The notes under the pieces were generated by a model. The model made no database searches and was not told the origin of the DNA. It was given only the letters and a program-made list of their open reading frames with translations. The position numbers were made by a program, and so were the translations under genes. 64,000 bases of DNA from the NCBI GenBank assembly GCA_016844925.1, contig JAERTI010000043.1, positions 197,110-261,109 on the forward strand, in the 5' to 3' direction. The first letter of the stretch is position 1. Each line of letters starts with the position of its first letter. The DNA comes from Candidatus Uhrbacteria bacterium. Its GTDB lineage: Bacteria; Patescibacteriota; Patescibacteriia; UBA9934; GWF2-40-263. Shown here in pieces: positions 39,954-40,158 of the stretch.

Positions 39954-39983
39954 CGGGGTTCTACGGAACCCTCTTTTTCTTTT
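39954..39983 (+). terminator. Intrinsic terminator
   Basis: gggttc-tacg-gaaccc then TCTTTTTCTTTTC. Confidence 0.6.
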
Positions 39984-40011
39984 CTTGACGGATGTGATCG
40001 GTGCGCTATAG
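39984..40011 (+). promoter_or_regulatory. Sigma70-like promoter of the GNAT leader
   Basis: TTGACG, 16-nt spacer, TATAGT. Confidence 0.5.
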
Positions 40012-40017
40012 TGAATA

Positions 40018-40158
40018 CTGTTATGACACACACACGAAGTTTCTTTTTTAGCAGCTTCTTCTTCCGCCAGCGCGGGACGTGTTTGTCATAGCAGAATCCT
40101 TCTGCTAAAAAAACAACCGTCCCGAAAGGGGCGGTTGTTTGTTTCCTAGGGAGAAAAC
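40018..40158 (+). promoter_or_regulatory. Structured 5' leader with a terminator/antiterminator alternative (candidate riboswitch or attenuator)
   Basis: Intrinsic terminator caaccgtccc-gaaa-ggggcggttg + TTTGTTT at 40114-40146, 13 nt before the ATG; upstream cgggacg can pair with the terminator 5' arm cgtcccg; additional long-range tatgacacacac/gtgtttgtcata stem. Confidence 0.45.

Follow-up and report, generated by a model that had tools for sequence, protein, structure and literature searches.

The 64,000-nucleotide (nt) stretch of Candidatus Uhrbacteria bacterium contig JAERTI010000043.1 analyzed here, referred to as the window, carries a leader at 40019–40147 directly in front of a gene for a two-domain acyltransferase of the GNAT family (GNAT1). 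This leader probably attenuates transcription through a translating ribosome, in the manner of trpL/pheL, and, judging from its sequence, would report the supply of charged tRNA-Phe. All coordinates are positions in the window, features lie on its forward strand unless stated otherwise, and the leader was read in 39600–40500. A first-pass annotation had recognized an attenuator at this site, had assigned it to metabolite or tRNA sensing, and had held that no ligand could be inferred. Transcription attenuation by mutually exclusive helices stands, and the riboswitch or T-box interpretation does not: neither kind of element gives an Rfam match at E ≤ 10, and a small open reading frame (sORF) at 40023–40091, which had been overlooked, spans regions 1 and 2 of the leader and contains six phenylalanine (Phe) codons. 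This codon content makes the signal inferable, namely charged tRNA-Phe sensed via the position of the translating ribosome.

The boundaries of the leader are well defined. The preceding gene, which encodes a 196-amino-acid (aa) protein, ends at 39940 and is followed by an intrinsic terminator (39955–39984; stem at 39955–39972, then a T-run). Next comes a sigma-70-type promoter (39985–40012) composed of TTGACG at 39985–39990, a 16-nt spacer, and TATAGT at 40007–40012. With 10 of 12 consensus positions matched, it was the sole sigma-70-like site returned by a promoter scan of 39000–44500. Both elements had been placed correctly in the first-pass annotation. Because the −10 box ends 10 nt 5′ of the sORF ATG, the predicted 5′ untranslated region (UTR) is just ~3–6 nt long, and the transcription start site would lie a few bases 5′ of the ATG. 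The predicted terminated transcript measures ~125 nt. Folding of the 129-nt leader yields −53.6 kcal/mol, compared with −29 ± 3.4 kcal/mol in 200 dinucleotide shuffles (z = −7.3).

Within this transcript, two alternative sets of helices can be drawn. Region 1 (40022–40033) overlaps the start codon and codons 1–4 and supplies the 5′ half of P1, a long-range helix. In the minimum-free-energy fold, it pairs as uaugaca-c-acac with gugu-u-ugucaua (40079–40090), which is the long-range stem described earlier. A small hairpin (UUCCGC-CAGC-GCGGGA, 40062–40077) lies directly 3′ of the last Phe codon in the same minimum-free-energy fold; it stacks on P1, sequesters the G-rich start of region 2, and may also serve as a pause hairpin. 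Region 2 (40072–40090) ends at the stop codon and can pair either with region 1 or, via 40073–40084, with the terminator 5′ arm at 40111–40124 to form the antiterminator, an alternative that the first-pass annotation had also proposed. Between the two arms of the antiterminator, and thus inside the loop that it closes, is hairpin P3 (uagcagaa-ucc-uucugcua, 40089–40107), which overlaps the stop codon. P3 contains the uagcag/cugcua pair to which a competing role had been ascribed; the pair exists as this local hairpin, and its supposed upstream competitor uagcag (40048–40053) is not conserved in orthologues.

The leader ends in an intrinsic terminator (40111–40146) with region 3 at 40111–40123, a GAAA loop, region 4 at 40128–40140, and a U-tract extending to 40146. 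Its annotated core, caaccgtccc (40114–40123), gaaa, ggggcggttg (40128–40137), and UUUGUUU, is present 13 nt 5′ of the GNAT1 start, and RNAfold extends the stem to 13 bp (40111–40123 with 40128–40140). A simple consensus terminator scan did not list this terminator, probably because the maximal stem swallows the first U residues. The regulated gene, GNAT1 (40148–41079), begins with a Shine-Dalgarno sequence (AGGGAGA, 40148–40154), and its coding sequence runs from the ATG at 40159 to 41079 (306 aa).

The sORF starts with the ATG at 40023 and comprises 22 codons up to TAG at 40089–40091, giving the product MTHTRSFFFSSFFFRQRGTCLS. All six Phe codons fall among codons 7–14, in a block at 40041–40064 that reads TTC TTT TTT AGC AGC TTC TTC TTC and thus holds them in two triplets. 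A hairpin inside this block in the fold of the window leader (GAAGUU/AGCUUC) is absent from the orthologues and was treated as incidental.

We compared the window leader with those of 14 GNAT1 loci recovered from genome and assembly collections of Uhrbacteria-like Patescibacteria metagenome-assembled genomes (MAGs), for a total of 15 sequences. The proteins encoded in the recovered loci are 44–53% identical to GNAT1 of the window. The first-pass annotation had made its reading depend on conservation of the leader at orthologous GNAT loci, and the same leader is present directly 5′ of GNAT1 in all 14. The in-frame ATG and Phe run are retained in every sORF (15/15), each of which has four to seven Phe codons. 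Summed over the 15 sORFs, the 90 Phe codons are divided between TTC (51) and TTT (39), and the alignment of the Phe block shows T/C-variable columns every third base. The sole indel within the block measures 3 nt (alignment columns 38–40). These two features fit selection for Phe codons and do not fit an aptamer.

The peptides of the 15 leaders follow the form M-x4-6-FFFSFFF-R-x-RG-x-CLS. Beyond the Phe block, the reading frame is broken in three of them, by a frameshift in L006 and, in L005 and L008, by an early TAA that arises from a 1-nt deletion and falls within the small-hairpin loop. The RNA helices are intact in all three. As the frame is dispensable while the helices persist, the tail of the peptide looks like a by-product of RNA constraints.

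The order of elements is likewise preserved. The Phe block is followed by the hairpin CCGC-NNNN-GCGG and then by a G-rich/UGUGUUUG segment before the stop codon; next come a hairpin of variable sequence and the terminator, AACCGCCCC...GGGCGGUU and a U-tract. A promoter of the form TTGACA, 17 nt, TAGCCT precedes 13 of the 15 leaders, with the ATG 10–12 nt after the −10 box. The other two, L004 (3800–3820) and L134 (405–420), contain the Phe leader without a promoter of its own, and their sORF ATG is located 8 nt after the stop codon of ndk. These two leaders carry GGAGAGGGAG ~11 nt 5′ of the sORF ATG. From this arrangement, they are presumably cotranscribed with ndk and perhaps translationally coupled to it.

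Covariation was assessed on a hand-anchored, N-padded alignment (A5), which replaced a MAFFT and covariance-model realignment that had put the shortened terminators of L005, L008, L010, and L133 in the wrong place. Since A5 is anchored on structure, its counts for P3 and the terminator lean towards structure, and slid-partner and shuffle controls are given for that reason. Paired cells make up 88.6% of the terminator-state structure (P1, small hairpin, P3, and terminator), compared with 36–49% in slid-partner controls, and 13 pairs have changed on both sides; the covariation score of this structure was reached by none of 500 shuffles. Taken separately, the P1 equivalent of the orthologues (CAAACACA with UGUGUUUG) is 80% paired, the small hairpin 92% with a variable loop, and the terminator helix 91%, with 6 of 10 pairs changed on both sides. 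A hairpin at the position of P3 occurs in all lineages with a different sequence in each. The longest hairpin in this spacer averages 5.9 bp, compared with 4.0 ± 0.2 bp in shuffles; P3 was aligned by its own structure, and its pair counts are therefore lenient.

In the antiterminator, alignment columns 56–65 and 111–119 are 97% paired, compared with 38–65% in slid-partner controls, and compensatory changes occur at 59:116 (GC in 9, AU in 3, GU in 3) and 60:115 (UG in 9, CG in 3, UA in 3). The window itself displays such an exchange, with GGGACG/CGUCCC where most relatives have GGGGUG/CGCCCC. A covariance model built from the 15 leaders recovered its own members with 80–131 bits, and the next best match in 185 kb scored 28 bits. 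A separate metagenome scan with the DNA pattern TTCCGCN{3,4}GCGGGNNGTGTTT returned 120 stretches, all but two of which were chance matches in unrelated genes, as the pattern is too unspecific for that database. The two true matches, L054 and L116, are duplicates of L001 and L008, respectively.

We examined the effect of ribosome position by folding transcripts that end before region 4 with the footprint of the ribosome masked, for all 15 sequences. With the A site on the first or a middle Phe codon, region 2 pairs with 6–12 bases of the terminator 5′ arm in 15/15. With the stop codon in the A site, it does so in 0/15, including the early-stop leaders L005 and L008; in the window, the TAG (40089–40091) lies directly 3′ of region 2. 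Under this mask, nothing upstream pairs with the arm in 12/15, and in the remaining three, 2–5 arm bases pair with the short spacer. Coverage of region 2 at the stop codon thus leaves the 5′ arm available for the terminator. In full-length RNA without a ribosome, terminator, P1, and small hairpin together form the minimum-free-energy fold in 14/15, the exception being L133.

These observations suggest the following mechanism. Transcription would start a few bases 5′ of the 22-codon ORF with its two Phe triplets, and we infer that this ORF is translated by a ribosome coupled to RNA polymerase, such that the leader responds to Phe. When Phe-tRNA is ample, the ribosome would reach the TAG at 40089 and cover region 2 (40072–40090); the terminator (40111–40140) would then form, and transcription would stop 13 nt short of the GNAT1 start. 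Under a shortage of Phe-tRNA, the ribosome would stall on the Phe codons at 40041–40064, which would hold open region 1 and the small hairpin and leave region 2 free to pair with the emerging terminator 5′ arm, allowing RNA polymerase to read through into GNAT1. If the leader were not translated at all, region 1 and the small hairpin would sequester region 2, and the terminator would form.

The leader has the elements by which leader-peptide attenuators are recognized. These are a short leader ORF with clustered regulatory codons (6 Phe in 22), an intrinsic terminator (10–13-bp GC-rich stem and U-tract) between this ORF and the structural gene, an antiterminator that cannot coexist with the terminator, a 1:2 anti-antiterminator that includes part of the coding region and for which, in view of the truncated folds, the argument is kinetic, and a stop codon located where a terminating ribosome would cover region 2. 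RF01859 (Phe_leader) was the sole Rfam leader model to respond, with a full-length alignment at 35.8 bits (E ~1e-4). The gathering score of this model is 55, and in the eight orthologous loci scanned, its best match was 29 bits (L134), with no match at E ≤ 1 in the others. Because these scores lie below the gathering score, we regard the leader as an independent family that works like pheL and not as a member of RF01859. Permissive Rfam matches to terminator-like small RNAs such as suhB and STnc240 were discounted as terminator matches. At the gathering threshold, the only Rfam matches in the whole window were two divergently oriented tRNA genes at 3121–3338 (3121–3194 on the reverse strand and 3265–3338 on the forward strand).

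Several observations weigh against assignment as a Phe attenuator. The sORF lacks a Shine-Dalgarno sequence and begins ~3–6 nt from the predicted transcription start, so that initiation would have to be leaderless-like. P1 of the window is in a shifted register relative to the orthologues. The 15 sequences are related, several of them closely (L001/L132 and L005/L008), and the covariation counts therefore overstate the number of independent events. In truncated, ribosome-free RNA, the antiterminator is already the minimum-free-energy fold in ~10/15, and the 1:2 pairing wins in only ~4–5/15; the untranslated "off" state would thus need kinetics, with 1:2 forming first, and not thermodynamics. 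Such an order of folding is assumed for other attenuators. Finally, the gene downstream of an attenuator usually, though not by definition, makes or charges the same amino acid. Here, a two-domain GNAT takes that place, which is neither a Phe biosynthetic enzyme nor an aminoacyl-tRNA synthetase, and the physiological logic is therefore not self-evident.

The identity of this gene bears on the first alternative, in which the same attenuator would serve another signal. Stalling on the Phe codons would then report an insult to Phe decoding, such as a PheRS inhibitor, a Phe analogue, or D-Phe mischarged onto tRNA, and GNAT1 would be a detoxifying N-acyltransferase. GNAT1 matches Pfam Acetyltransf_1, and its AlphaFold2 model has a pLDDT of 93. 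In a Foldseek search against the PDB, the N-terminal domain resembled N-acetyltransferases of the phosphinothricin/ArsN/YncA/RimI type, which act on free amino-acid analogues or protein N-termini; the closest folds are those of acetylators of toxic amino-acid analogues (phosphinothricin acetyltransferases, ArsN, YncA, and PA4866). The same search did not place the C-terminal domain (about residues 176–306). A detoxifying role would also suit the D-aminoacyl-tRNA deacylase of the conserved neighborhood and the Asp/Glu-family racemase found there in relatives. However, starvation and inhibition look alike to a leader peptide, and the sequence therefore gives this signal no preference over starvation. 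In addition, the sister unit described below pairs an ArgE/DapE-type deacylase with a GNAT, and such a deacylase would reverse detoxification by acylation. We view a decoding insult as an improbable signal, if the best of the alternatives.

Still less likely is that the ~125-nt transcript is a small gene in its own right, for a Phe-rich micropeptide or a trans-acting small RNA, with its place before GNAT1 being incidental. Such a gene would be expected to have its own promoter and terminator, as the window element does, and the peptide core NTFFFSFFFR is well conserved. The position is not that of an independent gene, however: the element is directly 5′ of GNAT1 in 15/15 loci, even where the upstream neighbors differ, and L004 and L134, which start 8 nt after the ndk stop, have no promoter of their own. 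L005, L008, and L006 have lost the C-terminal half of the peptide or read it in a shifted frame but retain the RNA helices, and the stop codon falls exactly at the end of region 2, a hallmark of attenuators. A riboswitch or T-box-like element that flips the same terminator and antiterminator without translation is the least probable reading. The exclusive helices are indeed conserved, and the conserved small hairpin and P3 could in principle make a binding pocket, but the small-hairpin loop and the P3 sequence vary freely, the most conserved single-stranded stretch consists of Phe codons in frame with an ATG and T/C-variable every third base, which is unexpected for an aptamer, no T-box sequence or specifier-loop architecture is present in the mere ~125 nt, and Rfam gave no T-box match at the gathering threshold or at E ≤ 10 and no riboswitch match in 39850–40250 at E ≤ 10.

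The Phe attenuator has a sister on the adjacent paralogous unit. A second leader (41123–41320), with a promoter, an sORF at 41161–41259 (MNHTSYMMLRTVSREDILDIIVVVFLLGLAVA), and a terminator at 41289–41310, precedes genes for an ArgE/DapE-type M20 deacylase (41325–42434) and GNAT2 (42500–43495), which is 33% identical to GNAT1. It has its promoter (TTGACA, 17 nt, TAGCCT) and the 5′ motif TGAATANNGTTATGANNCACAC in common with the Phe leader. Its sORF is rich in Ile, Leu, and Val (13 of 32 residues), and the last codons, GCG GTG GCA (GCGGTGGCA just 5′ of the stop codon), copy the 3′ arm of the terminator. Rfam gave no match for this leader. An Ile/Leu/Val-rich sORF was found before M20-GNAT2 in 10 of 12 loci, and ribosome-mask folding behaved alike in the nine loci with a callable terminator. 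More distant M20-GNAT2 units also have an Ile/Leu/Val-rich leader. The spacing seen in the Phe leaders, with an ATG 10–12 nt after the −10 box of a TTGACA, 17 nt, TAGCCT promoter, recurs in the Ile/Leu/Val leaders. Adjacent paralogous units thus carry attenuators of differing amino-acid specificity.

A possible third attenuator is located 5′ of genes for an AstE/AspA-type deacylase and a small GNAT (window 54900–54997; L010:9149–9270, L134:4178–4300, and L135:5245–5365). The sORFs of the relatives share a conserved HH(H)G motif (MNFLFSTNQVAHHGVLSETF, MNCIQTNNQIHHHGISRETS, and MNSTGLNQAVHHGVSTETL), and alternative hairpins and a terminator come after them. The window has a frame that crosses the 3′ end of the YerC/TrpR-like gene and reads ...THHHDDL*, with a terminator-like hairpin at ~54953–54985 and AstE at 54997.

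The window is syntenic with Uhrbacteria loci. Its gene order starts with NUDIX, UDP-glucose dehydrogenase, ComEC, a metallo-beta-lactamase-fold protein, ndk (36434–36898), and three unknown genes, and continues through the Phe leader and GNAT1 to the second leader, the M20 deacylase, and GNAT2. Beyond a block of inserted paralogues lie FMN reductase, the YerC/TrpR-like gene, the AstE/AspA-type deacylase, the small GNAT, and the D-aminoacyl-tRNA deacylase (Dtd). The Asp/Glu-family racemase of the relatives' cluster is absent from the 64-kb window. The two-domain GNAT family is itself uncommon. A search of 5.8 billion proteins yielded 20 clusters of GNAT1 homologues (32–57% identical), the named ones all from Candidatus Uhrbacteria or Patescibacteria MAGs, and a profile search of 1.84 billion representatives yielded just 36 family matches at E ≤ 1e-30, indicating that the family is rare.

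The three genes between ndk and the Phe leader (36905–39940; 198, 555, and 196 aa) have no Pfam match. In most relatives, ndk directly precedes the leader, and L011, L008, and L133 have other unknown insertions at this point; the differing insertions suggest an insertion hotspot. The paralogue block on the other side of the GNAT units consists of six tandem ORFs of ~500 aa (44087–53560, forward strand; starts at 44087, 45775, 47357, 48881, 50413, and 52022). Its insertion separates the GNAT2 unit from the FMN-reductase/YerC/AstE/GNAT3/Dtd block; in relatives, these two lie closer together. The first of the six has no Pfam match, and L136 and L137 have a 525-aa gene at the same position. A conserved intergenic element of ~360 nt (43600–43960) is situated 3′ of GNAT2 and 5′ of a gene for a 525-aa, secreted-looking protein. 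It recurs with 69–75% identity at L007:5936–6277, L136:3990–4385, L133:6927–7226, L005:5747–5932, and L008:6890–7076, and it ends in a strong hairpin (accaccgag...ctcggtggt). Rfam at E ≤ 1 gave no match for it, and ARAGORN found no tRNA or tmRNA. The element is a candidate for a structured non-coding RNA or a long 5′ leader.

The function of the regulated enzymes is a weaker inference than the attenuator itself. Amino-acid-specific N-acylation and deacylation may be their role, possibly in a D-to-L or N-acyl amino-acid salvage induced by starvation. More broadly, and only tentatively, the cluster could answer to at least two, perhaps three, attenuators with distinct amino-acid specificities, Phe for GNAT1, Ile/Leu/Val for M20 and GNAT2, and a His-containing sORF for the AstE/AspA-type deacylase, the small GNAT, and Dtd. 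Each attenuator would then reveal the substrate class of its unit, and starvation-induced salvage, such as D-to-L conversion or N-acyl amino-acid recycling, would take the place of biosynthesis as the answer to amino-acid shortage in these amino-acid-auxotrophic, ultra-small Patescibacteria. Organisms of the Patescibacteria type are generally described as having minimal biosynthesis (e.g., PMC8672522). If salvage of this kind takes place, it would make sense of attenuators in such organisms.

Leader-peptide attenuation is textbook knowledge, but its descriptions come mainly from operons for biosynthesis and tRNA synthetases in Proteobacteria, Actinobacteria, and a few Firmicutes. Full-text searches of the available literature found no report of it in Patescibacteria, Parcubacteria, Uhrbacteria, or the candidate phyla radiation (CPR), with only pheL turning up, and Rfam 15 has no model for the Phe-leader element. 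The mechanism itself is known. What is undescribed, judged by Rfam 15 and the literature that could be searched, is the family, its host phylum, the kind of gene it controls, its near-leaderless sORF, and the use of two specificities in tandem. These organisms with reduced genomes would keep a ribosome-coupled sensor of amino-acid supply, and translation in this Uhrbacteria lineage would be able to start on a ~3–6-nt 5′ UTR without a Shine-Dalgarno sequence. The attenuators tie a readable signal (Phe, and Ile/Leu/Val next door) to rare, uncharacterized two-domain GNATs and an ArgE/DapE-type deacylase, which yields a testable biochemical hypothesis. The element is also a compact, predicted natural Phe-responsive switch with covariation support, and its covariance model is ready for MAG annotation.

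In its logic, the leader resembles E. coli trpL, in which four regions are used, a ribosome on the regulatory codons chooses 2:3 or 3:4, and an untranslated leader terminates. Here, too, the stop codon lets a terminating ribosome mask region 2, and termination of the untranslated leader is predicted. Unlike in trpL, the regulatory codons specify Phe and not Trp, region 1 of the window lies mostly 5′ of these codons, an extra small hairpin is present just 3′ of them, and P3 is an additional hairpin between regions 2 and 3. The ilvGMEDA, ilvBN, and leu leaders are multivalent branched-chain attenuators and offer a parallel for the neighboring leader at 41123–41320, with its Ile/Leu/Val-rich ORF and the last codons that copy the terminator 3′ arm; that leader, however, controls a deacylase and a GNAT and not biosynthetic genes, and has no Rfam match. 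A further Phe leader-peptide attenuator is pheM-pheST. Mycobacteria possess leaderless, Cys-rich upstream ORFs (uORFs).

An Ala-sensing uORF has been described for whiB7 (PMC10274678), and leader-peptide attenuators of Actinobacteria have been surveyed (PMC1262725). The Cys-rich and whiB7 uORFs share with the window sORF that small ORFs enriched in one amino acid, some of them leaderless, sense that amino acid and control non-biosynthetic genes; they differ from it in phylum and amino acid, and the window adds a textbook pair of intrinsic terminator and antiterminator with covariation. For the regulated genes, and not for the leader, the closest parallel is the D-to-L operon of Geobacillus kaustophilus, which, as summarized in bioRxiv 10.1101/2022.03.03.481873, encodes a GNAT succinyltransferase, an NSAR racemase, and an M20 L-desuccinylase. 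The two have GNATs and an M20 deacylase of the ArgE/DapE type in common, to which the relatives of the window add a racemase, an AstE/AspA-type deacylase, and a D-aminoacyl-tRNA deacylase. The Uhrbacteria cluster differs in having no enolase-superfamily NSAR, in the Asp/Glu type of the relatives' racemase, and in GNATs of the rare two-domain family.

The closest known leaders are the pheL-pheA attenuators of gamma-proteobacteria (RF01859, PMC3082878). The window leader is set apart from them by a host in the Patescibacteria, by the absence of detectable homology (35.8 vs 55 bits), by a nearly leaderless ORF without the Shine-Dalgarno sequence that pheL has (PMC3082878), and, as from pheM, by control of a GNAT acyltransferase in place of chorismate mutase/prephenate dehydratase or PheRS. 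What the two have in common is a short ORF that contains Phe codons in one or more internal runs, a pause helix 1:2, an antiterminator 2:3, a terminator 3:4, and a U-tract just before the structural gene, and the RF01859 model aligns end to end with the window leader.

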